Positions 4,638 to 55,265 of a stretch of DNA of 64,000 bases are shown in pieces. This DNA comes from Candidatus Omnitrophota bacterium (lineage in GTDB: Bacteria; Omnitrophota; Gorgyraeia; Zapsychrales; Fredricksoniimonadaceae), in assembly GCA_015233145.1 (NCBI GenBank), contig JADFYI010000002.1, forward strand, positions 44,495 to 108,494, in the 5' to 3' direction. Below the pieces are notes generated by a model that was given only the letters and a program-made list of their open reading frames with translations, did not search any database and was not told the DNA's origin. The translations under genes and the position numbers were made by a program. Each line of letters starts with the position of its first letter. The stretch's first letter is position 1.

Positions 4638-5384
4638 TTAATTAACGTTTAAGACTTTGTTAACCTTGTCCACCAGATCCAGTGATGAGCAGGGTTTGTG
4701 CAAAAACTCGATATCCAGCAAACTGCTGAGGCGAGGTTCAACGATCTGGTCTTGGGAGGTCAGAATGATGATCGGCAAATCCGGAAACTTGGAATTAAAC
4801 TTTATCTTGTAAACAACTTCATAGCCGTTCACTTCCGGCATCATGATATCCAGAATCAAAAGGTCGGGCCGCGCTTCTTCAATCGAGGCCATGGCCTCTT
4901 TCCCGTTATTCGCCAAACGCACGTCATAACCCGCCTTTATAAGGATTTCAGACGACAGCTTCTGCGAAATCGGGTCATCATCGGCAATAAGGATGGTGTT
5001 AACATTAACCTTGAGATGGCCCTGGGCCATACAGGCATTCTTGGCCCGTTCTTCCCCTAAAAACCATTGGGCCTCTTCAAGTTCCTTTTGTGTGCCTTGC
5101 AACTGTGACCTTAATTGTTCAAGCTGTGACTGCAAGTCACAAGCGCGCTCAATGGAATCTTTCAGGGAAATATCTAATTGATCTTTCCTGGCCCGTTCTT
5201 CGCCTAGATACCATTGCGATTCGTCAAACTGCTGTTTTACTTTATTGAAACTATTTTGAAGAAACTCGATATGCTGGTTTTTGTCGCGCAGTTCATTTTC
5301 AAGTGATTGGATCCTTGCCTGCGCTTCCCCCAAAAGCCACTGGGAATCCTGAAGCTTTTTTTCGACAGATTGGCCTTCCTCCAT
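4638..5384 (-). CDS. response regulator: N-terminal repeat-containing coiled coil plus C-terminal receiver domain, no output domain
   Basis: Receiver motifs are ILIADDD, DLLILDIMMPEVNG, IIILTS and HKP. The N-terminal 125 aa are Q/E/L-rich with three copies of [SA]-Q-W-[LYF]-L-G-E-[AE]-[QR]-A-[RK]. Confidence 0.85.
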   Translation of the reverse strand: MEEGQSVEKKLQDSQWLLGEAQARIQSLENELRDKNQHIEFLQNSFNKVKQQFDESQWYLGEERARKDQLDISLKDSIERACDLQSQLEQLRSQLQGTQKELEEAQWFLGEERAKNACMAQGHLKVNVNTILIADDDPISQKLSSEILIKAGYDVRLANNGKEAMASIEEARPDLLILDIMMPEVNGYEVVYKIKFNSKFPDLPIIILTSQDQIVEPRLSSLLDIEFLHKPCSSLDLVDKVNKVLNVN

Positions 5385-5460
5385 ATCCCCCCCCTTATGA
5401 ATAAAGCCTGAAAACCAAAAAAAATTATTTCTATTATTTTATACTAAATTTGCACCCGGA

Positions 5461-5967
5461 CTACTTCTTTTTCTTTTTCGAAACCGGTTTTTTCTTGCTT
5501 AGCGCTTTTTTGACAAGAGAAACCTTTTTCTTTTTTTGAGCAAATGGCTTATTAATGACAACAGGAGTTTTTCCCAAGGCCTGAGGAATGTCTTTCGGCC
5601 TGTTATCAACGCTTGGCGTTGAGGTTAAACGGCCGCCAGCCTTGCGTCGGGAGAAACATTCCTGGCAATACACAGGCCGGTCGCCGGTGGGTTTAAAAGG
5701 GACCGAACAATCTTTCTTGCAATCTGCGCAAATGGCCGTGTGCATGACCCTTCCATTAAAACGATTGTTTTGCGGGGCTCCCCCTTGAACATGCGTTAGA
5801 ACGGGCGGCACAGGAAGCGGCTTTACGCCAGGCTTTACGTCAACCAAAGGACGGTTAATTAAAGTGTCCAGTTTTTTATCAAGTAACGTCAGTTGGGCTT
5901 GAAGTTGTTCCTGTATTTTAATAATTAAAACAAGCAATTCCTGTTCATTTTGCGTCTCTTTTTTCAT
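5461..5967 (-). CDS. CxxC-x17-CxxC zinc-ribbon protein with coiled-coil N-terminus and poly-Lys tail
   Basis: CADC-KKDCSVPFKPTGDRPVY-CQEC is exactly CxxC-x17-CxxC. The C-terminus is KKKKVSLVKKALSKKKPVSKKKKK. The start is trimmed from the TTG at 6009 to ATG 5967, which has AAGGAGG 4 nt upstream. Confidence 0.7.
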   Translation of the reverse strand: MKKETQNEQELLVLIIKIQEQLQAQLTLLDKKLDTLINRPLVDVKPGVKPLPVPPVLTHVQGGAPQNNRFNGRVMHTAICADCKKDCSVPFKPTGDRPVYCQECFSRRKAGGRLTSTPSVDNRPKDIPQALGKTPVVINKPFAQKKKKVSLVKKALSKKKPVSKKKKK

Positions 5968-23728: not shown

Positions 23729-24340
23729 TTATTTTAACCAGGGTGTTTCTTTTACCAGCTTCTCCTCAAATGCTGAAATCTTATCTGTAAACTGAAGGGT
23801 CCAACCAACCTGGTCGAGCCCTTTGAGCAGACATTCCCTGTTAAAAGCATCGATTTCAAAGGGATATGTTTCCCCTCCGGCTTTCACAACCTTATTTTCA
23901 AGGTCAGCCGCCACATGAGCGCCTTTATTCTTTAAGACATATTGAAAAAGCTCTTCAACTTCTTCGACCTTTAATCGCACCAGGAGAATGCCGTTTTTAA
24001 TGCAATTATTATAGAAAATATCGGCAAAACTCGGCGCAATAATACAACGAAACCCGAAATCATATAACGCCCAGGGCGCATGTTCGCGCGAAGAGCCGCA
24101 GCCAAAATTATCCCGGGCCAGTAAAACCTGGGCCTTGTTGTAAGGCTCCTGATTAAGGATAAAATCTTTGTTTTCCTGAGTGCCCTCGTAATCGGTATAA
24201 CGCCATTCATGAAAAAGATGTTTCCCAAACCCTGTGCGTTCAATTTTTCTTAAGAACTGCTTGGGGATAATGGCATCTGTATCAACATTGGAACGATCCA
24301 AAGGCACGGCTACGGATGTTAAAACTGTAAACGGTTCCAT
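23729..24340 (-). CDS. leuD: 3-isopropylmalate dehydratase small subunit
   Basis: [26 protein letters not shown]. Immediately downstream of leuC. Confidence 0.92.
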
Positions 24341-24355
24341 AAAACACCCTTCTTA

Positions 24356-25762
24356 TTATTTCTTTACAAACTCTCTGATGTCTGTAATCTTGCCGGTAAT
24401 AGCAGCCAAAGCCGCCATCTCGGGGCTCACCAGGTGCGTACGGCCGCCAGGCCCCTGACGGCCTTCAAAATTCCGGTTTGATGTGGCAGCGCAGCGCTGT
24501 CCCGGCTTTAACTGATCATCGTTCATGGCCAGGCACATGGAACATCCGGCATGGCGCCATTCAAATCCTGCTGCTGTAAAAACTTTATCGAGGCCTTCTT
24601 TTTCAGCCTGGCGCTTGACCCTCCCGGAACCAGGAACAACAAGGGCCTCTACCCCTGAAGAAACTTTCTTCCCCTTAACAATCTGGGCTGCGGCGCGTAA
24701 ATCTTCAATGCGGCCGTTGGTGCAGGAACCAATAAAAACAACATCAATTTTGATATCCGTTATTTTCATCCCAGGCTTCAGATCCATGTAACGAAGCGCA
24801 TTTTTGGCTGCGGTCTGGGCCTGTGGATCTTTAAAGCTCTTGGGGTCTGGCACTGTTTTATCAACAGAAACCACCTGTCCAGGGCTTGTGCCCCAGGTAA
24901 CCTGCGGGCCAATATCTTCAGCCTTGATGTTAATCACTTTATCAAATTTGGCACCCTTATCGCTCGAGAGAGTTTTCCAGTAGCTGACGGCCTTAACCCA
25001 ATGGTCTCCTTTGGGAGAATAATCGCGGCCCTGAAGATAGGTAAACGTGGTATCGTCAGGCGCTATCATCCCGGCGCGCGCGCCAGCTTCAATAGACATA
25101 TTACAAACCGTCATGCGGCCTTCCATGGACATTTCTTGAATGGTGCTTCCGCCATACTCGATAACATACCCGGTTGCGCCGGCTGTTCCTATGAGGCCAA
25201 TAACGTAAAGGATCACATCCTTGGGCGAAACGCCAATACCTAAAACCCCATCAATATTAATAAGCATTGTGGGAGATTTCTTCTGCTGTAATGTTTGCGT
25301 AGCCAAAACATGTTCGACTTCAGAGGTGCCGATGCCAAATGCTAATGCGCCGAAAGCGCCATGCGTTGCAGTATGAGAGTCGCCGCAAACAATCACCATC
25401 CCGGGCTGGGTAATGCCCAATTCCGGGCCAATGATATGGACAACACCCTGGTCGTCATCTGTAAAATCAAAGCATTTAATGCCAAACTCATCGCAATTCT
25501 TCTTTAATTGGTTGATCTGCGTTAACGATGTTCCGCTGGCCAAAGAAAGATCTTTGCTTTTGGTGGGCACGTTATGGTCCATGGTGGCAAAAACCTTTTG
25601 AGGCGCGCGAACCTTGCGGCCAGACACACGCAGGGCCTCAAACGCCTGAGGGCTTGTGACTTCATGGACCAGCTGGCGGTCAACATAGATAAGAGAGGCC
25701 GTATTCTGGCCTTCATGGACAAGATGCGCGTCCCATATTTTCTGGTACATTGTTTTTGACAT
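24356..25762 (-). CDS. leuC: 3-isopropylmalate dehydratase large subunit
   Basis: [38 protein letters not shown]. The track start at 25795 is a TTG extension, so I use ATG 25762. Confidence 0.95.
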
Positions 25763-25879
25763 AGCATACCCCAGCCATCTTTTAAACCCTTTCAATAATT
25801 CAGAAGGCCTTCTATAAAAAGCCTTAAAAATCTCCGTGTATTATAACTCTTATCTCCAAAGGGGCAAGGGACAATCAAA

Positions 25880-28567
25880 TTATACTAATTTCCTTAAGAC
25901 CGTTTGTAAGATGCCGCCGTTACGGTAATAATCAATCTCCACAGGCGTATCCAAACGGACAATGACCCTGAATTCCCTGGCTTCTCCTTCTTTGGACTGT
26001 GCCGTAACCAAAACTTCCTGGCGGGGGCTTAAATGTTCATTTAATCCCGTAATATCAAACTCTTCATCACCTTTAAGCCCTAGTGTTTGGGCATTCTCCC
26101 CTGGCTTAAACTGGAGCGGCATAATGCCCATGCCCGCAAGGTTGCTGCGATGAATGCGTTCAAAACTTTCTGCAATGACAACACGGATTCCCAATAATGC
26201 CGGGCCTTTGGCGGCCCAGTCGCGGCTTGAGCCTGTGCCGTACTCCTTGCCTGCCAGGGCAATCAAAGGCGTGCCATCGGCCTTATATTTGACCGAACCA
26301 TCAAAAATGCTCATGACTTCCCGGGTCTTAAAATACGTTGTCCACGACCCCTCTGTGCCAGGAGCCAGCAAATTACGCAAACGGATATTGGCAAAAGTCC
26401 CCCGCGCCATCACACGGTCATTGCCGCGGCGCGCGCCATAGCTGTTAAAATCCAACGGAGCAACGCCAAGCCCTACGAGATACTTCCCTGCCGGACTTTT
26501 AGCGGAAATGTTTCCAGCCGGAGAAATATGGTCGGTTGTGATGGAATCTCCCACCATAATAAGCGCCCTGGCGCCTTTGATATCTTCAATCGCTTTCTGG
26601 CCCTGGGCTGTTTTCTCAAAATACGGAGGTTCCTGAATATAAGTGCTTTTTTTATTCCAGGGGTAAAGCTCACTCTTTAAAGACTTAACCTTGCCCCAAT
26701 TTTTGTTTCCCTTGACCGCGGTCTTATACTTTCCGCTAAAAACACGGGCTGTTACATATTTTCTGATGAGCTGGTTAATTTCTGCCTGAGACGGCCAGAT
26801 GTCTTTTAAATACACATCATTGCCGTCATTATCTTTCCCCAGGGATTCATTAAATAAATCAACTTTTACTGTTCCGGCAATGGCATAGGCCACAACCAGC
26901 ATCGGGGATGCCAGATAATTGGCCTTCACATGCGGGTTAATGCGGCCTTCAAAATTACGGTTACCGGAGGTGACACTCGCGGCAATAAGATTCCCTTCCT
27001 CAATGGCCGCAGACACGGCTTCGGGCAACGAACCGCTGTTGCCAATACATGTGGCACACCCGTAACCCACGTTATAAAACCCCAAGGCTTCAAGCGCGCG
27101 CATCAGCCCCGCTTTTTCCAAATACTCATCCACCACCTGAGAACCAGGTGTGAGCGATGTTTTGACAAAACTTTTGACCCGTAACCCTTTTTGAACAGCT
27201 CTTTGAGCCAAAAGCCCGGCACCTATGAGCACTGAGGGGTTTGAAGTATTGGTACAGCTTGTAATCGCCGCAAGCACCACACTGCCATGCCCGATATGAT
27301 TTTTCGAGCCTTTCACAGAGATTTTTTTGTCAACATCCGCTTCAGACAGGCCAAAACCTTTATGCCCGACGGGTGATGTCAATGCCGCTTTAAAACTGTT
27401 TTTAAGATCAACCATTTTCACCCGGTCCTGCGGCCGTTTAGGGCCGGCCAGGCTTGGCTCAATGGTGGTTAAATCCAATACGAGCGTGTCTGTGAATTCC
27501 GGCTCTGTTTGGGCATAGGGATCAAAAAGGCCAAGGGCTTTAAAATAGGCTTCCACTATTTTGGCTTCTTTGACGCGAGCGGTTGTGGCGTAATAATTGA
27601 TTGTTTCCTCATCAATCGGGAAAAGCCCCATGGTTGCCCCATACTCCGGCCCCATGTTGGAAATTGTGGCGCGGTCAGCCAGCGTCAGATGCTTGAGGCC
27701 AGGGCCAAAAAATTCTACAAATTTGTCCACCACGCCGCGTTTGCGGAGCATTTCCACAACAGTCAAAACAAGATCCGTGGCCGTGACGCCTTCATTGAGG
27801 GCGCCGGTTAATTTTACGCCGATTACCTCCGGCATGACCATGGACAAAGGCTCACCAAGCATCACAGATTCCGCCTCAATCCCTCCCACACCCCAACCCA
27901 CGATGCCAAGGCCGTTGATCATGGTGGTATGGCTGTCAGTGCCCACAAGGCTGTCAGGATAAAGAATAACCTCCCGGCCGTCTTTCTTTTTGAGGACACC
28001 CCCGGCTAAATATTCAAGATTGACCTGATGGATAATCCCTGTGGCCGGCGGAATAACACAAAAATTCTTAAACGTGTTTTGTCCCCATTTTAGAAATTCA
28101 TAGCGTTCATTATTGCGCTTGAATTCCAAAAACACGTTTTTATCAAAAGCCTGCCTGCAGCCAAAGGCATCCACCTGAAGCGAATGGTCAATCACCAGGT
28201 CGCACTTAACCTGGGGGTTAATTTTTTTAACATCCCCTTTCAGGCGTTTCATGGCTTCACGCATAGCGGCCAGGTCTACAACACACGGCACCCCTGTAAA
28301 ATCCTGCAAAATGACACGGCCAGGCTTAAATGCGATTTCTTTGAGTTCATTTCTGGGTTTCCAGCCTGCCAAAGTTTTAATGTCGTCTAAGGTGACCTGA
28401 TAATTGTCGTAATTGCGAAGCGCGCTTTCCAGAAGAATACGGATCGAAAACGGGAGCTTTGAGATGTCGGTTAAAAGAAGGCCAGACAACTTATTGATAT
28501 CGTAAATCTTGTACGTCTTCCCTGCGATTTTTAACGACTTGGTAAATTTTTCTTTATTAAATTCCAT
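25880..28567 (-). CDS. acnA: aconitate hydratase A
   Basis: 895 aa. Aconitase family motifs [34 protein letters not shown] and the swivel domain [16 protein letters not shown]. Confidence 0.93.
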
Positions 28568-28601
28568 AAAAACCTCTGATTAAAAGTTTGATTCTGTTGC
28601 A

Positions 28602-28680
28602 GAGACATCGGGACATGTCAGTCGCTCGGACAGTCCCTGCCTGCCGGCAGGCTCACTTGGTGACATATTCCCGATGGCTC
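28602..28680. repeat. palindromic terminal-inverted-repeat element, short copy
   Basis: gagacatcgggacatgtca...tgacatattcccgatggctc with central palindrome gcctgccggcaggc. It shares a 17-nt core (agtcgctcggacagtcc) and an 11-nt block (cttggtgacat) with the reverse complement of 54988..55124. Confidence 0.85.
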
Positions 28681-28887
28681 ACAACAGGCTTCAAGCTGCC
28701 AATAACCAAATTGCATGAATTATAGGGAAACACCTGCCTTGCGTCAATAAAGTTGAAAGTATTTGTTGAAAAACATCTATTCCCTGTTTAGGATGACATA
28801 AAGTATAAATTGATTTAGGGAATGTGCATTGTCCTTTTCAGACGTTAAAAGGTTTTGGCAAAAGTTCCCTGAAATAAAAATTTTATT

Positions 28888-30330
28888 ATGAAAATTGCCA
28901 TATTAAATCCTTCATTCGGTGAAAACTTTGTACGCGTAGCGCGTTGGGCTGCCAAATCCCGCGGACGCGTGCAGCGCCATCCCGATTATCTTCTCACGGC
29001 CGCCCAAATTCTTATCAACGCCGGCCATGATGTTATTTTTGTCGAGGCTGCGGCAAGGAACCTGACACCCGAAGAAAGCTTTCGGATTGTGAAAAATTTT
29101 AGGGCTGAACTTCTGGTGATCCACGCCACAACCCCGTCTATTTATGCGGATATTGACCAGGCCCGTGTTATTAAAGACCAAAACCATTGCAAAGTGGCTT
29201 TTGTCGGCCAGCACACCACAGCTGAGCCGGACAACACTTTTGAAATCGCGCAAGGTGTCGTGGATTATATTTTACGCGGCGAGTATGACGACACTTTAAA
29301 AGATATTGCTTCCGGTATGCCTCCCAAAGACATTGCAGGCCTTTGCTGGCATGACGGAACAAAGGTTATTCATAATCCCAACCGTCCTGCGGTCAATGTT
29401 AATGACCTGCCCTTTCCTGCCTGGCAGCTTATTCAGCCTGAATGGTATCCGGACGCCGGGAAAAAATATCCGTTTCTCACGTTATTCACCGGACGAGGAT
29501 GTAACAATGCCTGCACGTTTTGCAGAGACCCGCAGCTCATGTATGGTTACAACTTGCGAACCCGCGACTCAAAACTTGTTGTGGATGAAATGGAATATGA
29601 CCTTAAGCTTTTCCCGCAAATCCGCGAAATCATGTTTGAGACCGACACTTTTACGGCAGACCCCCAGCATGTGCGTGCGGTCTGCCATGAAATCATAAAA
29701 CGCGGGCTTCATAAGAAAATATCATGGTCGTGCAATGTCAGGATCAATATTGACCTGGAACTTCTTCCTTTAATGAAAGAAGCCCACTGCCGCATGCTCA
29801 TGGTGGGTTACGAATTCGGCACCAACGAAGCCTTGCGCGCGGTGCGTAAAGGTGGGGTCAATGTTGAAATGGGACAACGATTCTCCCAGCGAGCGCATGA
29901 ATTAGGTTTTACTTTGCACGGATGTTTTATGATTGGCGCGCCCGGCGAAACCCGCGCCAGCGCCCGTGCGACCATTGATTATGCTAAGGGCATGCCCTTA
30001 GATACGATTCAATTCACAGGAATTGCCACTTACCCAGGAACCCATCTTTATAAATGGGCCAAAGAAAATGGATACCTTCTGGCCAAAGACTGGAAAGATT
30101 GGCTTACAGCGGAAGGCGAACAAAAAACCCTGCTCTCTTACCCGCAGCTTTCCAATAAAGAAATTGATGAACTGATTGATGTGGGATTAAAAGAATTTTA
30201 TCTGCGCCCGAAACAAATGTGGAGAATGCTGATTTCTATCCGTTCCATCGGCGATTTCCTAAGGAAACTTTACGGATTAGGCGCTTTTCTGGATTACTTC
30301 TGGAAAAAAATCTTCAGGAAAAAAGCTTAA
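28888..30330 (+). CDS. B12-binding-domain radical SAM protein (class B type)
   Basis: N-terminal Rossmann-like B12-binding region, then FTGRGCNNACTFCRDP (C-x3-C-x2-C). 480 aa, similar in layout to HpnJ-like class B enzymes. Substrate unknown. Confidence 0.85.
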   Translation: MKIAILNPSFGENFVRVARWAAKSRGRVQRHPDYLLTAAQILINAGHDVIFVEAAARNLTPEESFRIVKNFRAELLVIHATTPSIYADIDQARVIKDQNHCKVAFVGQHTTAEPDNTFEIAQGVVDYILRGEYDDTLKDIASGMPPKDIAGLCWHDGTKVIHNPNRPAVNVNDLPFPAWQLIQPEWYPDAGKKYPFLTLFTGRGCNNACTFCRDPQLMYGYNLRTRDSKLVVDEMEYDLKLFPQIREIMFETDTFTADPQHVRAVCHEIIKRGLHKKISWSCNVRINIDLELLPLMKEAHCRMLMVGYEFGTNEALRAVRKGGVNVEMGQRFSQRAHELGFTLHGCFMIGAPGETRASARATIDYAKGMPLDTIQFTGIATYPGTHLYKWAKENGYLLAKDWKDWLTAEGEQKTLLSYPQLSNKEIDELIDVGLKEFYLRPKQMWRMLISIRSIGDFLRKLYGLGAFLDYFWKKIFRKKA

Positions 30331-36544: not shown

Positions 36545-39500
36545 CTAATCAAAAATTAAAGCGTTATTATTGACGGGCTTGATGTCCAGGATCACGGGCA
36601 CAAGCCCGTCGATATGAATATTATCAAAATCCTGCTGGCTCACTGGTAAAACCACTCCTTTGCCATCCCGCTTAATTTCCATATCCAGAGTTGACTGCGA
36701 AAGGCTGATACCGCCGTACACGTCTTTGGTTAAGGCGGCTGCATCAGTGTTGTTTTTTTCTTGAAGAACAACTCCCTGGGAGGGGGCCTCCCCCAGCGGA
36801 GACCTCAACTGAAGAGGATTCCTGTCTTTTTCAGCCGGCAACTGGTGCTGTGTCACAGACACAAAAAGCGCATTCTTGATAAACCAGGCTGCTGCCTGCT
36901 TTAAGAAAGAGTCCCTGACTGCCTGCTTTAAATCCTCAGCTGACAAAGGCGGTTTTGAAAATAACGACTCCACAATATCCCGCCCTTCCTGCGTCTCAAT
37001 GTCAAAACCCATGCCTAAAAGAAGTGGCTCAAACTTTTGTGACCATTCATTATTCTGATAGGACTGGCCTGGGTTTCTTTTTTCAAATAATATTTTTTCT
37101 TGAAACAATTCAAATGCCCGCATTAAAGCCTGCATCCTGGAATGCTTTTCCGGGCCGACGGCCAAACGGATATTCTCAACAATCCCTATCATCCTTCTTA
37201 AAAAACTTAACAACCCCTGTCGACGGATATTTACGCCCGTATTGAGCAATACCGAGGCCTCCTTAGACGCTTCAGTTTCTCTTAAAAGAACCTGGGCTTT
37301 GGCAAGGGTATATTTCTGATAATAATCATCCCAGGTGTCCAAAAAGCTTACTGAAAAATAAAATCTATCTGAAACGCGAACCCAGGCAGACTCTGCCCAC
37401 TGGGCCGGAAGCGGGCCGTTGATTGTTTGAAGGACATCTTCATAAACAGAATATAAAGAACCCGCTGATGTCATGATTCGCGCACCCCCGGGGATTTCTT
37501 CACGGGTTTTAATCTCAAAGGACACGCCGACTTTTTCCGGAAGCCCAATGACAGTGCCCTTGACAGGATCCATAAACCTGGGGGCATCCTTCTCGTAATG
37601 CTCATCAGCCAGCAATGAAAATACAATTTCCCGGTCTTCTTCAGACTGGGGGTCAATCCACATTTCTTCAAAAATATTGCTATCAAAAGGAGGCTCAAGA
37701 AATGGCTTATGCAATTTTTGGGCAGAAACCGACCTCCTCAGCCATTTTAAAGCTTCAAAATAACTTTCAAACCTCTTGGGATTTTCATTGTCGATAATAT
37801 CAGACAGGATGCTTAACCTTTCAATGATCCGGACAAGGGATGTATACGGGACTTTTTTTCCGGTGTACAACTCAACGGTTTTTCCATAATCTTTAACGAC
37901 AGCACTTAACTCATCAAGCTGTGCTGATACATATTGTTGCCTGAAAAAATCTTCCGTAACTTTTTCTTTACCAAGATAAACCTTTATCCCCCAGTAAGAC
38001 CCTGCCAGGGATCCCCGTGACAGCGTTAATTCCTGTAAATATCTGAAAAAGTCAAAAAAACGCAGATCATGCTGATAATAAGGCGTTGCTTGACTTTGAG
38101 CTGCTGACCGCCTCATCCGGGAGCGATAAACATGCACGGAGTCTTCCTTGGGAGATATTTTTTCGAGCGATCCATCGTTTGTAAAAGACCAGAATGATTC
38201 CTCATCTTTTTCGCTCTTTTCCCTGGGGGCAACCATCACAGTTCCATCAGGCAAAGATTCCACAACAGACTTTGGAGCTGCCAATAATGTTTGAAGAGGC
38301 CGCCAGCCGTTATCCTTATCCCCCATCCTTGTTATAAAATCACCCTGAGAAGATGTTAACAAAAGAGACCTCTCTCGAGGGTCAAGGAAAACAGCCTCCG
38401 TAAGGTTTTCTTTTGTTAAACCATAGCGGCTCCCATACTTTTCAAGAACAACCTGTGCAGCACTTTTTAGCGAGGCAGAATTCTCGAAGAATGCCCTTTG
38501 GGGTTCAGTCAACACTGTTTGAGCCATGTCCATCTTGTCATAATTTTGAAGAAACTCTTTCTGTGTCTCTGATGAACCTGCCCTTTGGATGACTCCCTTT
38601 TGGGCATAATCATTCACAGTTCCCCCGGAAAAATACTTGCGCGGAATAAGCTCCTGGGTCAATTGATCCAGGTCTTCTTTGATCATGTTAAACACACCCT
38701 TTTGAAACGCGATAATATACTGGTCATAAATTTCTTTATTGTTGGCCGGATTTTGGTCCACTCCCCTAATTTTTCCCTTATCCGCATAAATTTTAGAAAG
38801 GATGGATTCTTTCAGTGTTTGTTTATACCAGGTCGCCAAAAGCATCCCGCTGTAAACCTGGCGGAGCGGGGCAAAATTTCTGCCTTCGTTAACCTCTTTT
38901 TCAATGGCCGGAATAAGAACCTGTCGCATAACCTTTTCTGAAATCTCCGAGGCCTCTTGTGAAGCAACCGGGTTGCCATCAGAAACATTTTTTTGTGTGG
39001 CCAGGTAATCTTTATCCAAAAGAACTTTCAGATGATTCGAAAGCACATAGACATTGTTCCCTTTTTCATAAATCACGGCCTTATCCGGGACAATCCAAAC
39101 TTTATGGAAAGTGTCTGTGGGGATATCTGTTGTCCCGAATTTCTGATAAGCAGTCTGGTAAACCTCTTTCCAGAATTTTTTTCCAAGGTCTGTGTCAGGA
39201 TGGATTAACGACGCGGAAATCTGTTTTAAGAGATAATCCTGCGCCAAAAGGTCCCTGCCCATTTCTGTAAGGCCAAAGTTATCAGGGATAATGCGCTCCT
39301 TCTCGTAAGGAGAAAGGTTGACCCACTGGTCAGTATCAGGGACAGCGAGCGCGGTCAGAAAATATTTGATAAGTTTGGGATATTCCGATTCTTTTTGCTC
39401 TTCTGTCAAAGGCTCATCCCCGCGGTAGATCAAAAAGTCAAATTTAAAAGGATTCGTGGGATCAATCCGCATTCCCTTCATAAATGCAGGGTTAAAAACT

Positions 39501-39634
39501 TGTGTCAGGCTTGTCATGCCCCCTGGCTGCGGCATAAGCCCAATAGCGCTAAGAGGTTCTGAAAACACCAATGACGGAATAATTGAGGTGAAAATAAAGA
39601 AAAAAAGTATTATTAAGGCTGTTATTTTTCTCAC
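36545..39634 (-). CDS. large secreted hypothetical protein (1029 aa)
   Basis: GTG start with GGAG 7 nt upstream. Signal peptide KITALIILFFFIFTSIIPSLVFS. No catalytic motif recognised. The N-terminal segment (LMPQPG...FNPAFMKGMRIDPTNPFKFDFLIY) and C-terminal segment (GGISLSQSTLDMEIKRDGKGVVLPV...IDGLVPVILDIKPV) look like conserved modules I have seen only in unannotated proteins. Confidence 0.75.
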   Translation of the reverse strand: MRKITALIILFFFIFTSIIPSLVFSEPLSAIGLMPQPGGMTSLTQVFNPAFMKGMRIDPTNPFKFDFLIYRGDEPLTEEQKESEYPKLIKYFLTALAVPDTDQWVNLSPYEKERIIPDNFGLTEMGRDLLAQDYLLKQISASLIHPDTDLGKKFWKEVYQTAYQKFGTTDIPTDTFHKVWIVPDKAVIYEKGNNVYVLSNHLKVLLDKDYLATQKNVSDGNPVASQEASEISEKVMRQVLIPAIEKEVNEGRNFAPLRQVYSGMLLATWYKQTLKESILSKIYADKGKIRGVDQNPANNKEIYDQYIIAFQKGVFNMIKEDLDQLTQELIPRKYFSGGTVNDYAQKGVIQRAGSSETQKEFLQNYDKMDMAQTVLTEPQRAFFENSASLKSAAQVVLEKYGSRYGLTKENLTEAVFLDPRERSLLLTSSQGDFITRMGDKDNGWRPLQTLLAAPKSVVESLPDGTVMVAPREKSEKDEESFWSFTNDGSLEKISPKEDSVHVYRSRMRRSAAQSQATPYYQHDLRFFDFFRYLQELTLSRGSLAGSYWGIKVYLGKEKVTEDFFRQQYVSAQLDELSAVVKDYGKTVELYTGKKVPYTSLVRIIERLSILSDIIDNENPKRFESYFEALKWLRRSVSAQKLHKPFLEPPFDSNIFEEMWIDPQSEEDREIVFSLLADEHYEKDAPRFMDPVKGTVIGLPEKVGVSFEIKTREEIPGGARIMTSAGSLYSVYEDVLQTINGPLPAQWAESAWVRVSDRFYFSVSFLDTWDDYYQKYTLAKAQVLLRETEASKEASVLLNTGVNIRRQGLLSFLRRMIGIVENIRLAVGPEKHSRMQALMRAFELFQEKILFEKRNPGQSYQNNEWSQKFEPLLLGMGFDIETQEGRDIVESLFSKPPLSAEDLKQAVRDSFLKQAAAWFIKNALFVSVTQHQLPAEKDRNPLQLRSPLGEAPSQGVVLQEKNNTDAAALTKDVYGGISLSQSTLDMEIKRDGKGVVLPVSQQDFDNIHIDGLVPVILDIKPVNNNALIFD

Positions 39635-53932: not shown

Positions 53933-54346
53933 TTATTGAACATGCGTTGCAGCGATGTCGAGCTTGGCAACACCCATTTCGGTCAAGAGGTCAAGGATAT
54001 CCACAATATCCTTAAAGCGGGTTAACTGATCAGCCCTGAGATAAACGCTAAGCTCTTCGTTCTCCCGGTGCATGGCCACAATTTTTTCCCGAAGCTCTTT
54101 ATGCGTCATAAGCTTGTCATCCAGATACACCATACCTTCGGTCGTAATCGTAATCACGGCCTGCTTGGTTTGGCCAACATCACGGGGTTCGGCAGTCTTG
54201 GCCTTGGGAAGTTTGACCTTTATGTTGGATTGATAGATCAAGGGGGTGGCCACCATAAAAATAACCAGCAGCACCAAAATAACGTCGGTAAACGGCGTTA
54301 TATTGATGTCAGCAAAGAAACGCTGCTTACGGGAATGCCTCTTCAT
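53933..54346 (-). CDS. exbD: ExbD/TolR-family biopolymer transport protein
   Basis: ADINITPFTDVILVLLVIFMV is the signature TM segment. 137 aa. A TolR assignment cannot be excluded, and no tonB/tolA is adjacent. Confidence 0.82.
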   Translation of the reverse strand: MKRHSRKQRFFADINITPFTDVILVLLVIFMVATPLIYQSNIKVKLPKAKTAEPRDVGQTKQAVITITTEGMVYLDDKLMTHKELREKIVAMHRENEELSVYLRADQLTRFKDIVDILDLLTEMGVAKLDIAATHVQ

Positions 54347-54957
54347 GACTTCACCGTCAAAAGATCTAAGGTTTCTGAGGCAGAGATTTCCATGTCTTTA
54401 ATCACGTCCTCAATCTTTTTAATAAAATAATTATAAGCAATAACCGCAGGAACAGCAACGCACAAGCCCACCGCTGTACAAATCAGGGCTTCGGCAATGC
54501 CGTTAATAACAACCCCGACACCTCCCGTGCCTTTTTCAGCAATATCCTGAAACGCCTTAATGATACCCAAAACCGTACCAAAAAGGCCAATATAAACCGC
54601 GGTGCTTCCAATAGTGCCCACAATACTGATTCGGCGTTCGAGGCGCATGGTTTCAATGGTAATCTGGCGGTCCATGGTGCTTTCAATCATGGCAGGAGCC
54701 TGTCCCCTTTTCATAAATCCCGTTAAAATAACCCTGGCACAGGAATTATCAATCTTTCTACAAAAATCCAAAACCTTCTGGGCATTGCCTTTCTTGAATT
54801 CATCATTCACATAGGCCATAAGCTTGTCACGCGATACTTTGCGGCTGGTGTAATAAAAAAGAGACCTTTCAAAAATAACAGCCAGAGACACGATCGACAG
54901 CATCAAAAGCACATAAACAGTTACCCCGCCGACAGCCAGTAATTGCCAAAACGACAT
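54343..54957 (-). CDS. exbB: ExbB/TolQ/MotA-family proton channel
   Basis: Three TM helices and the motif GLFGTVLGIIKAF...GIAEALICTAVGL. 4-nt overlap with the exbD-like gene. Confidence 0.82.
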   Translation of the reverse strand: MSFWQLLAVGGVTVYVLLMLSIVSLAVIFERSLFYYTSRKVSRDKLMAYVNDEFKKGNAQKVLDFCRKIDNSCARVILTGFMKRGQAPAMIESTMDRQITIETMRLERRISIVGTIGSTAVYIGLFGTVLGIIKAFQDIAEKGTGGVGVVINGIAEALICTAVGLCVAVPAVIAYNYFIKKIEDVIKDMEISASETLDLLTVKS

Positions 54958-54987
54958 AATATTTCTCCTGTTAATTTCTCATTTTTT

Positions 54988-55124
54988 TATCGAGCCGTCG
55001 GGGACATGTCACCAAGCGAGTTCCGCAGTGAGCCGCTTCATAGAAAATTCAAAAACTACGATTCTAAACTTGGCGGCGAAACGAGGACTGTCCGAGCGAC
55101 TCACATGCCCCCGATGGCTCGATA
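54988..55124. repeat. palindromic terminal-inverted-repeat element, long copy (137 nt)
   Basis: Termini are tatcgagccgtcggggacatgtca and its inverted partner tcacatgcccccgatggctcgata (about 24 nt, 3 mismatches). The interior holds 55 extra nt relative to 28602..28680. Opposite orientation to the short copy. Confidence 0.85.
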
Positions 55125-55197
55125 ATTAGCAAAAATTTCTTAAGAAACGCTCTTCTCCTATATTACAGATGAGTATTTTCCCGTCAATGAGAATCAG

Positions 55198-55237
55198 CAA
55201 AAATATAAACCCCCTGACAACTTTCGCTGTCAGGGGG
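55198..55237 (-). terminator. rho-independent terminator of hppA
   Basis: Perfect 10-bp stem ccccctgaca (55210..55219) / tgtcaggggg (55228..55237), followed on the minus strand by TTTATATTTTTGC. Confidence 0.75.
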
Positions 55238-55265
55238 CATTTTCGATACAAGACTTTTTTATGTC

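Follow-up and report, generated by a model that had tools for sequence, protein, structure and literature searches.

Two copies of a small hairpin repeat with an invariant asymmetric core and copy-specific stems in an Omnitrophota genome, and their relatives in other phyla

Introduction

Rickettsia palindromic elements (RPEs) are confined to Rickettsia and its relatives and are conserved along their length. Their description is reportedly due to Ogata et al. in 2000. The element analysed here, two copies of which (A and B) lie in the window, that is, the whole 64,000-nt stretch of Omnitrophota DNA under study, is closest to RPEs and REP elements. It resembles RPEs in being a short, palindromic, non-autonomous repeat of many copies, situated between genes and in frame within them (in linkers or within domains), with no associated transposase. 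However, its sequences and hosts are probably unrelated to those of RPEs, and the asymmetric core alone is conserved, with copy-specific arms and hosts in several phyla.

REP elements measure 20-40 nt, their stems are conserved, and they carry a 5' GTAG and are linked to a RAYT gene. As in REP, BIME and REPIN elements, the copies described here form extragenic hairpins after genes, often as pairs in either relative orientation, and are co-transcribed hairpins of the kind proposed to stabilise the upstream mRNA. In contrast with these elements, the stem is variable, no GTAG or RAYT is seen and copies also lie inside ORFs; the Pfam-scanned ORFs of the window and of the family hosts contain no Y1_Tnp domain. 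Membership of the REP/REPIN-RAYT class was rejected on the asymmetric core, the lack of GTAG and the unconserved stem.

TRIT is a conserved terminator-like hairpin of Mycobacterium; it is a palindrome, for the most part bidirectional, that occurs only in that genus and has its centre at approximately -8 from the stop codon (PMC3152330). Both TRIT and the present family are strongly conserved hairpins of many copies in an actinobacterial lineage, located at gene termini, without a classical U-tract and with a suggested binding factor, but the element described here is asymmetric, strand-biased, cross-phylum and also intragenic.

Classical MITEs and the Correia/NEMIS and ERIC repeats carry conserved terminal inverted repeats (TIRs) that match a parent IS, and direct target-site duplications (e.g., TA). 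The present element is similar to them in its size, inverted ends, lack of coding capacity, copy number and co-transcribed hairpins able to alter the expression of neighbours, whereas neither conserved TIRs nor direct duplications are seen here. Because the termini are unconserved and no direct target-site duplication is found, the defining features of TIR-MITEs and of REP/RAYT elements fail here.

Results

Copies A and B in the window

Copy A and copy B are located on opposite strands; a 17-mer is identical in both, and a second block and the long outer stem are likewise common to them. Their parts are as follows.

28602-28680, + strand: copy A, a short degenerate member; covariance-model match 28608-28674 (44.5 bits, E 1.2e-7)
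28602-28619, + strand: copy A 5' arm
28620-28636, + strand: copy A 5' core block AGTCGCTCGGACAGTCC
28637-28651, + strand: copy A central hairpin/palindrome
28652-28662, + strand: copy A truncated 3' block CTCACTTGGTG, with GCGGAA missing
28663-28680, + strand: copy A 3' arm
28596-28686, + strand: copy-specific extension of the copy A outer stem in the MFE fold, GUUG (28596-28599) pairing with CAAC (28683-28686)
54987-55125, - strand: copy B, a full family member; covariance-model match 55113-54998 (71.8 bits, E 1.2e-13)
55125-55121, - strand: copy B outer TTATC
55120-55102, - strand: copy B 5' arm
55101-55085, - strand: copy B 5' core block
55084-55027, - strand: copy B variable AT-rich hairpin region P3
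55026-55010, - strand: copy B 3' core block GCGGAACTCGCTTGGTG
55009-54992, - strand: copy B 3' arm
54991-54987, - strand: copy B outer GATAA

In copy A, the order is gagacatcgggacatgtc, AGTCGCTCGGACAGTCC, ctgcctgccggcagg, ctcacttggtg and acatattcccgatggctc, and a perfect 14-nt palindrome, gcctgccggcaggc, is situated at 28639-28652. This copy is degenerate, having lost the GCGGAA of the family 3' block. In copy B, read as the reverse complement of 54988-55124, the 17-mer is found at 55101-55085, CTCGCTTGGTGACAT at 55020-55006, and the arms are homologous to those of copy A. The 17-mer AGTCGCTCGGACAGTCC and the block CTCRCTTGGTGACAT are common to both copies, and the arms of 18 and 19 nt are ~85% identical; the spacing between the two blocks is 64 nt in copy B versus 15 nt in copy A. 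Outside the common arms, each copy has its own extension (TTATC/GATAA in B, GUUG/CAAC in A). An earlier note, made from these letters alone, had described the 79-nt segment at 28602-28680 with its inverted termini and palindrome, together with a longer opposite-strand copy bearing the same 17-mer, block and arms. Both descriptions are confirmed, with the hairpin of copy B slightly longer than first given, since TTATC/GATAA lengthen its stem to 55125-54987.

At up to 3 mismatches, the 17-mer occurs 2 times in the window versus 0.05 expected, and no shuffle out of 100 contains two or more occurrences; the second block also occurs 2 times (0.08 expected). The covariance model of the family, run over the 64 kb with filters off, recovers only copy B (71.8 bits) and copy A (44.5 bits). 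Folding of both strands, a check proposed in the earlier note, yields hairpins far beyond those of shuffled controls for either strand of both copies (z -3.4 to -5.6). In copy B, CAGTGA (window 55024-55032, + strand, antisense to exbB) resembles the loop of an IRE. This likeness was judged to be chance, as the motif is copy-specific and not in the family consensus.

Anatomy of the unit

The core is almost invariant and asymmetric, CGCUCGGACAGUCCU ... UGCGGAACUCGCU, with an optional variable hairpin of 0 to ~65 nt in the middle. As RNA, the 5' block reads (N)NYCGCUCGGACAGUCCU and the 3' block UGCGGAACUCGCUYGG. A stem of 15-25 bp clamps the core, its sequence varying by copy with complementarity kept. 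Without its arms, the minimal unit measures 44 nt. Compensatory changes exist at 12 of the 12 modelled outer-stem pairs; among 68 distinct copies, 51-66 of the 68 cells are paired at each stem position, with all Watson-Crick types present. The pair A1:U14, which closes the stem onto the core, also covaries (AU 57, UA 2, CG 1, UG 1). The core words CGCUCGGACAGUCCU and UGCGGAACUCGCU are invariant or nearly so, even at positions that the search pattern left free. Four candidate registers of pairing inside the core were counted and the A1:U14 closing pair is the only one that covaries; the core is too invariant for its internal pairing registers to be told apart. Within a genus, the innermost 4-6 stem pairs are common, and the outer 8-18 are unique to each copy despite identical cores. 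The earlier note had drawn on terminal inverted repeats for its MITE/REP-like reading; these are not the defining part of the element, since across the family the termini vary by copy and the internal core alone is conserved.

The middle hairpin differs in length and sequence by lineage, yet folds in all cases. The core word CGGACAGTCC reappears in the stem of this hairpin in several subfamilies, and a hairpin built in this way suggests a fold-back duplication of the 5' block. Core-word hairpins (…GCTCGCACGGACAGTCC GCT GGACTGTCCG…) are seen in the human-gut contigs L117, L128, L141, L144 and L184, and also in L074 and L115. One subfamily carries a 1-nt deletion in the core (CGG-CAGTCC). Resemblances to the hammerhead and hairpin ribozymes, K-turn, CsrA site, attC, IRE and RNase P CR-I were considered by eye and dropped as non-matching.

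Extent and hosts of the family

The earlier note had proposed a search for further copies, and many were found, an exact 17-mer scan with one genome per species giving 108 loci. The full architecture is present in 63 matches, with the 17-mer, GCGGAACTCGCTTGGTG at 12-67 nt further on, and complementary arms enclosing both. The hosts are Eggerthellaceae (Adlercreutzia, Gordonibacter, Enteroscipio, Parvibacter, Rubneribacter and Ellagibacter), Hallerella (Fibrobacterota), an Omnitrophota MAG and a Planctomycetales MAG; in Eggerthellaceae, a single draft genome contains up to 16 or more exact-core copies. The covariance model R1 adds approximately 10 further copies to those loci, frequently with a neighbouring copy 50-120 bp away in the same or the opposite orientation. 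In metagenomes, a looser pattern has at least 120 matches, and those listed include 48 real copies, among them low-GC environmental variants on contigs where the block ends differ, as in TTTCGCTCGG... and ...CGCTCGGAG. The viral contigs and plasmids searched contain no family copy.

Rfam 15, searched with the window, with both copies at E up to 10 and with 8 + 2 family loci, at gathering and permissive thresholds, assigns no family; its output for the copies and family loci consists of generic miRNA-hairpin noise only. Text searches for the core strings and for MITE/REP elements in Eggerthellaceae found no description of the repeat. The repeat family is apparently uncatalogued.

All three Hallerella copies (L011, L031 and L069) are located within ~90-135 nt of a contig end and are nested in unrelated inverted and direct repeats, e.g., GGGCAAGGTGGCGAAGGGTTGAGCGAACTCCG; the intergenic DNA of Hallerella is repeat-rich and breaks the assembly. 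In L014, a raiA RNA motif (Rfam RF03072, 148.5 bits, at 5271-5503) lies ~4 kb from a pair of copies and is probably unrelated to them.

Genomic setting of the window copies

Copy A is located between the divergent acnA and B12-binding radical-SAM genes, and copy B between the terminator of the H+-pyrophosphatase (PPase) gene and exbB-exbD, in agreement with the earlier statement that the two copies are intergenic and opposite in orientation. ExbB and the radical-SAM protein of this Candidatus Omnitrophota MAG match NCBI MAG proteins from a 186-kb contig at 100% identity. The surrounding features are as follows.

25880-28567, - strand: acnA (aconitase), flanking copy A
28888-30330, + strand: B12-binding radical SAM gene, flanking copy A; its own promoter-like site at 28766-28794 is downstream of the element
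28719-28747, - strand: sigma-70-like promoter of acnA, TTGACG-17-TATAAT (11/12 consensus match; conserved in the relative L232)
54343-54957, - strand: exbB, downstream of copy B, then exbD at 53933-54346
55160-55187, - strand: sigma-70-like promoter TTGACG-16-TAATAT upstream of copy B (consensus match only, 9/12)
55209-55238, - strand: intrinsic terminator of the PPase gene, upstream of copy B and separate from it

Copy B would be sense in the predicted exbB 5' leader, ~30 nt from the transcript start. Copy A, antisense and decayed, would lie in the predicted acnA 5' leader. The idea of a regulatory role raised in the earlier note retains its positional half, both copies being inside predicted 5' leaders; its link to iron is not supported.

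On the exbB side, three syntenic Omnitrophota loci (ExbB 68-70% identical) retain the PPase-exbB-exbD order, with a PPase-exbB spacer of 116-149 nt versus 308 nt in the window, and no element exists within ~29 kb at these loci. On the acnA side, L232 (radical-SAM protein 86% identical) retains the divergent aconitase/radical-SAM pair with a spacer of 112 nt versus 320 nt in the window. Its promoter block can be aligned to the window, including the -35 and -10 hexamers of acnA; its acnA leader is ~25 nt long and the element is absent. An empty-site allele of copy B was looked for in metagenomes, and none was found. Since the closest syntenic relatives, just 68-86% identical at the protein level, are without the element at both loci, both window copies are, on this comparison of sequences, lineage-specific insertions, with approximate boundaries, between the predicted promoter and the ribosome-binding site. 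A conserved leader RNA or riboswitch was rejected, since syntenic Omnitrophota have no element in the spacers PPase-exbB and acnA-radical SAM. If acnA or exbB were affected, this would be incidental to a strong hairpin having been placed in the leader, where a stem of 19-24 bp could plausibly affect the mRNA stability of the two genes.

Presence, in-frame residence and inversion at the DNA level

The element behaves as a selfish sequence at the DNA level, as is evident from its presence and absence, pairs, partial and nested copies, flips and in-frame residence. A copy is present in L014 and none in the related L060, and orthologous copies may differ by the entire middle hairpin (L087 versus L047). 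Furthermore, pairs, half or partial copies and nested remnants occur in the family.

Approximately one quarter of the Eggerthellaceae copies lie inside ORFs, as called at these high-GC loci by a home-made GC-frame caller, with 14 ORFs checked by Pfam. Pfam domains are situated on both sides of the element in mfd, CoA-enzyme activase, ABC-F, GATase and a CbiA/ParA-like protein. In Mfd, the element lies between the UvrB-interaction and RID domains. In the ABC-F ATPases of four genomes, it precedes the C-terminal domain. In the class-I glutamine amidotransferase (GATase) and the CbiA/ParA-like NTPase, the domains are split by the insert. In tsaB, L002 and L039 contain 147 extra in-frame nt, and the L070 orthologue is an empty site. 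The in-frame copies in this set of Adlercreutzia and Gordonibacter genes (mfd, ABC-F, GATase, CbiA/ParA-like NTPase, CoA-enzyme activase and tsaB) are the following.

L075:2399-2493, L038:6009-6103, L051:7285-7379 and L068:6764-6858: in-frame in-gene copies
L050:7018-7112, L080:7559-7632, L077:4409-4503 and L040:1985-2079: in-frame in-gene copies, same gene set
L064:2138-2333, L078:6057-6151, L004:2981-3075 and L002:3803-3898: in-frame in-gene copies, same gene set

Copies are able to sit in frame in genes because the unit is stop-free in all six frames, a property seen in just 2-12% of shuffles. In this respect the family behaves as RPEs do, as a palindromic repeat in frame in bona fide genes; both window copies are intergenic.

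At three orthologous sites, the core is flipped between Adlercreutzia sp. ZJ473 and ZJ176, with collinear flanks.

L075 vs L038: flipped site in mfd
L077:5545-5639 vs L040:783-877: flipped site downstream of the GATase operon
L051 vs L068: flipped site in ABC-F

L040 retains an 8-nt remnant, GAGCGACT, of the opposite orientation. In mfd, the 3' arm recurs just downstream as a native tandem coding motif, as if the 5' arm had been copied from the flank in inverted form.

A Pfam scan of all 60 window ORFs of at least 90 aa reveals no transposase, integrase, recombinase or Y1 domain, and the earlier statement that no transposase is present in the window stands. Across ~500 kb of flanks, no transposase, invertase or other candidate mobilising gene recurs near the copies. 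Generic ABC ATPases, the sole recurrent neighbours, were rejected as mobilisers, being hosts of in-frame copies. Target-site duplications, another check named in the earlier note, did not materialise: no direct repeats border copies A and B or the tsaB insertion, and the flanks of copies A and B continue the palindrome (GTTG/CAAC and TTATC/GATAA). No insertion junction at high identity, target-site signature or mobilising enzyme was found, so that the copying mechanism is one that we infer.

Orientation and position relative to genes

Between co-directional genes, 29 of 34 intergenic copies are on the sense strand; with orthologues merged, 25 are sense and 3 antisense (binomial p = 2.7e-5). 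The in-gene copies are divided about evenly, 7 to 6, which differs from the intergenic ratio (Fisher p = 0.018). The intergenic copies are located a median of ~30 nt past the upstream stop codon and roughly 150 nt ahead of the next start. Where two genes converge, both can have a sense copy of their own (L014). The same trend in orientation and position is seen in six metagenome contigs of low GC and in two low-GC loci of the genome scan (L091 and L092). The sense bias of intergenic copies just after stop codons suggests a constraint at the RNA level, and its combination with flips on short time-scales points to selection on transcript content.

Like TRIT and terminator hairpins, the family forms a G+C-rich hairpin near the stop codon, co-oriented with the gene, and the window copies are instead in 5' leaders. 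No U-tract or T-run follows the family stems on the 3' side, copy B being followed by an A-run, and a terminator scan near copy B flags only the separate PPase terminator; the elements are therefore not canonical intrinsic terminators. In the stems, A.C/C.A mismatches on the sense strand (50 cells) exceed G.U/U.G (24 cells), in a count that one subfamily dominates. This mismatch spectrum gives no sign of a stem kept for the sense RNA.

Discussion

Copies A and B belong to a widespread family of small hairpin repeats. In the most probable reading, these are non-autonomous, selfish at the DNA level and constrained at the RNA level when untranslated, with the window copies being insertions and not iron regulators. 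Of the MITE/REP-like non-autonomous element put forward in the earlier note, the non-autonomous, multi-copy and hairpin-forming character survives; the TIRs are not conserved, and there is no direct target-site duplication. In the proposed mechanism, the invariant core would be recognised by machinery that copies the element in trans. Fold-back (quasi-palindrome) template switching would create or lengthen the copy-specific arms by inverting one flank. The inserted element would then be co-transcribed, and copies that are not translated would be retained on the sense strand shortly past stop codons. This retention argues that the sense RNA core matters; most plausibly, it would act as a stable 3' stem-loop or as a platform for a protein, by which the upstream message is ended or protected. 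Ending or protecting the upstream mRNA has been proposed for REP and TRIT hairpins. The invariant core would thus be the functional module, and the clamping stem would be remade locally. Concerted evolution, that is, gene conversion between copies, could also produce identical cores with different arms without recent transposition.

A more ambitious version of this proposal is tentative and held with less than even confidence. The family may represent an undescribed class of mobile hairpin, in which a shared factor reads the core, the flank at the target is duplicated in inverted form to give the stem (by fold-back or hairpin-primed synthesis), and the element colonises 3' UTRs, leaders and protein domains across phyla and flips in place, its sense RNA maybe being functional.

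A structured non-coding RNA family (sRNA, protein-binding RNA or ribozyme), in which function explains the conservation and the copies are gene duplicates, is unlikely. The core invariant across four phyla, the full covariation of the closing stem, the variable middle hairpin in individual folds, typical of RNAs, and the strong sense-strand bias in untranslated regions are all as such a family would have them. Nevertheless, in-frame copies are found in six or more protein families, core orientation is reversed between sister species, and partial, nested and decayed copies exist (e.g., window copy A, a decayed one). Up to 16 or more near-identical copies with unrelated arms occur per genome, the 15-25 perfect stem pairs with an excess of A.C over G.U are not RNA-like, and there is no Rfam relative.

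Improbable to a further degree is a classical MITE, whose TIRs would be bound by a transposase encoded elsewhere and whose insertion would yield a direct target-site duplication. The size of 80-140 nt, the inverted ends, the multiple copies without coding capacity and the ~85% likeness of the 19-bp arms between the two copies of the window genome agree with it. However, the termini are unconserved across the family, even among identical cores in one genome, and no direct repeats accompany either window copy or the tsaB insertion. Moreover, there is no transposase in the 64-kb window, none recurs in ~500 kb of flanks, and no copies are found on plasmids or phage contigs.

A site-specific invertible switch, or mini-inverton, would have a recombinase flip the core between the inverted arms and thereby alter expression or the protein sequence in genes. 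The differing core orientation at the three orthologous sites of Adlercreutzia sp. ZJ473 and ZJ176 and the openness of the unit in six frames speak for such a switch, which is nonetheless very improbable: the inverted arms are copy-specific, so that a single recombinase could not recognise them, no invertase is nearby, and the observed flips are fixed differences between species and not heterogeneity within a population.

Least credible is the iron- or Fe-S-linked cis-regulatory element (leader RNA or operator) of acnA and exbB that the earlier note had kept in view. In its favour, each copy is placed between the start codon of acnA or exbB and a promoter-like site. Against it, the element is missing in syntenic relatives that retain these genes and the promoter of acnA, the copies are opposite in orientation relative to the two genes, the core of copy A is partly lost, and copies elsewhere come after or lie within unrelated genes (mfd, tsaB, GATase, ABC-F and helicases).

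The message for the window is modest: the predicted acnA and exbB leaders each hold an inserted hairpin that is not in close relatives. The notable features belong to the family, namely the asymmetric cross-phylum core, the copy-specific stems and the frequent in-frame residence in genes of gut bacteria. If truly uncatalogued, the family would be the second clear case, after the RPEs of Rickettsia, of palindromic selfish DNA in protein-coding genes. Its hosts include cultivable human-gut Actinobacteria (Adlercreutzia and Gordonibacter), which makes the proposals testable, and the conserved core, copy-specific stem, flips and sense bias together pose a tractable question about what recognises the core and where the stem originates. 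Meanwhile, such repeats break assemblies, inflate ORFs and mimic regulatory RNAs of leaders, and could pass for riboswitches or MITEs in genome scans.

Other features of the window and of L232

In the spacer between acnA and the radical-SAM gene, the bidirectional promoter block (window 28719-28794; L232:3685-3845) can be aligned and the remainder cannot. The aconitase of L232 (1019-3711) is called as two overlapping ORFs of 654 and 251 aa, as a frameshift or an assembly error might produce. A second aconitase-family pair (window 23729-25795; large subunit 24356-25795, small subunit 23729-24340) immediately follows acnA on its strand and looks to be of the isopropylmalate or homoaconitate isomerase type. 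No Pfam family matches the ORF of 1029 aa at window 36545-39634 (- strand) with E up to 1e-5. An ORF at the window edge (364-1146, - strand) contains an Abi_C (abortive infection C-terminal) domain.
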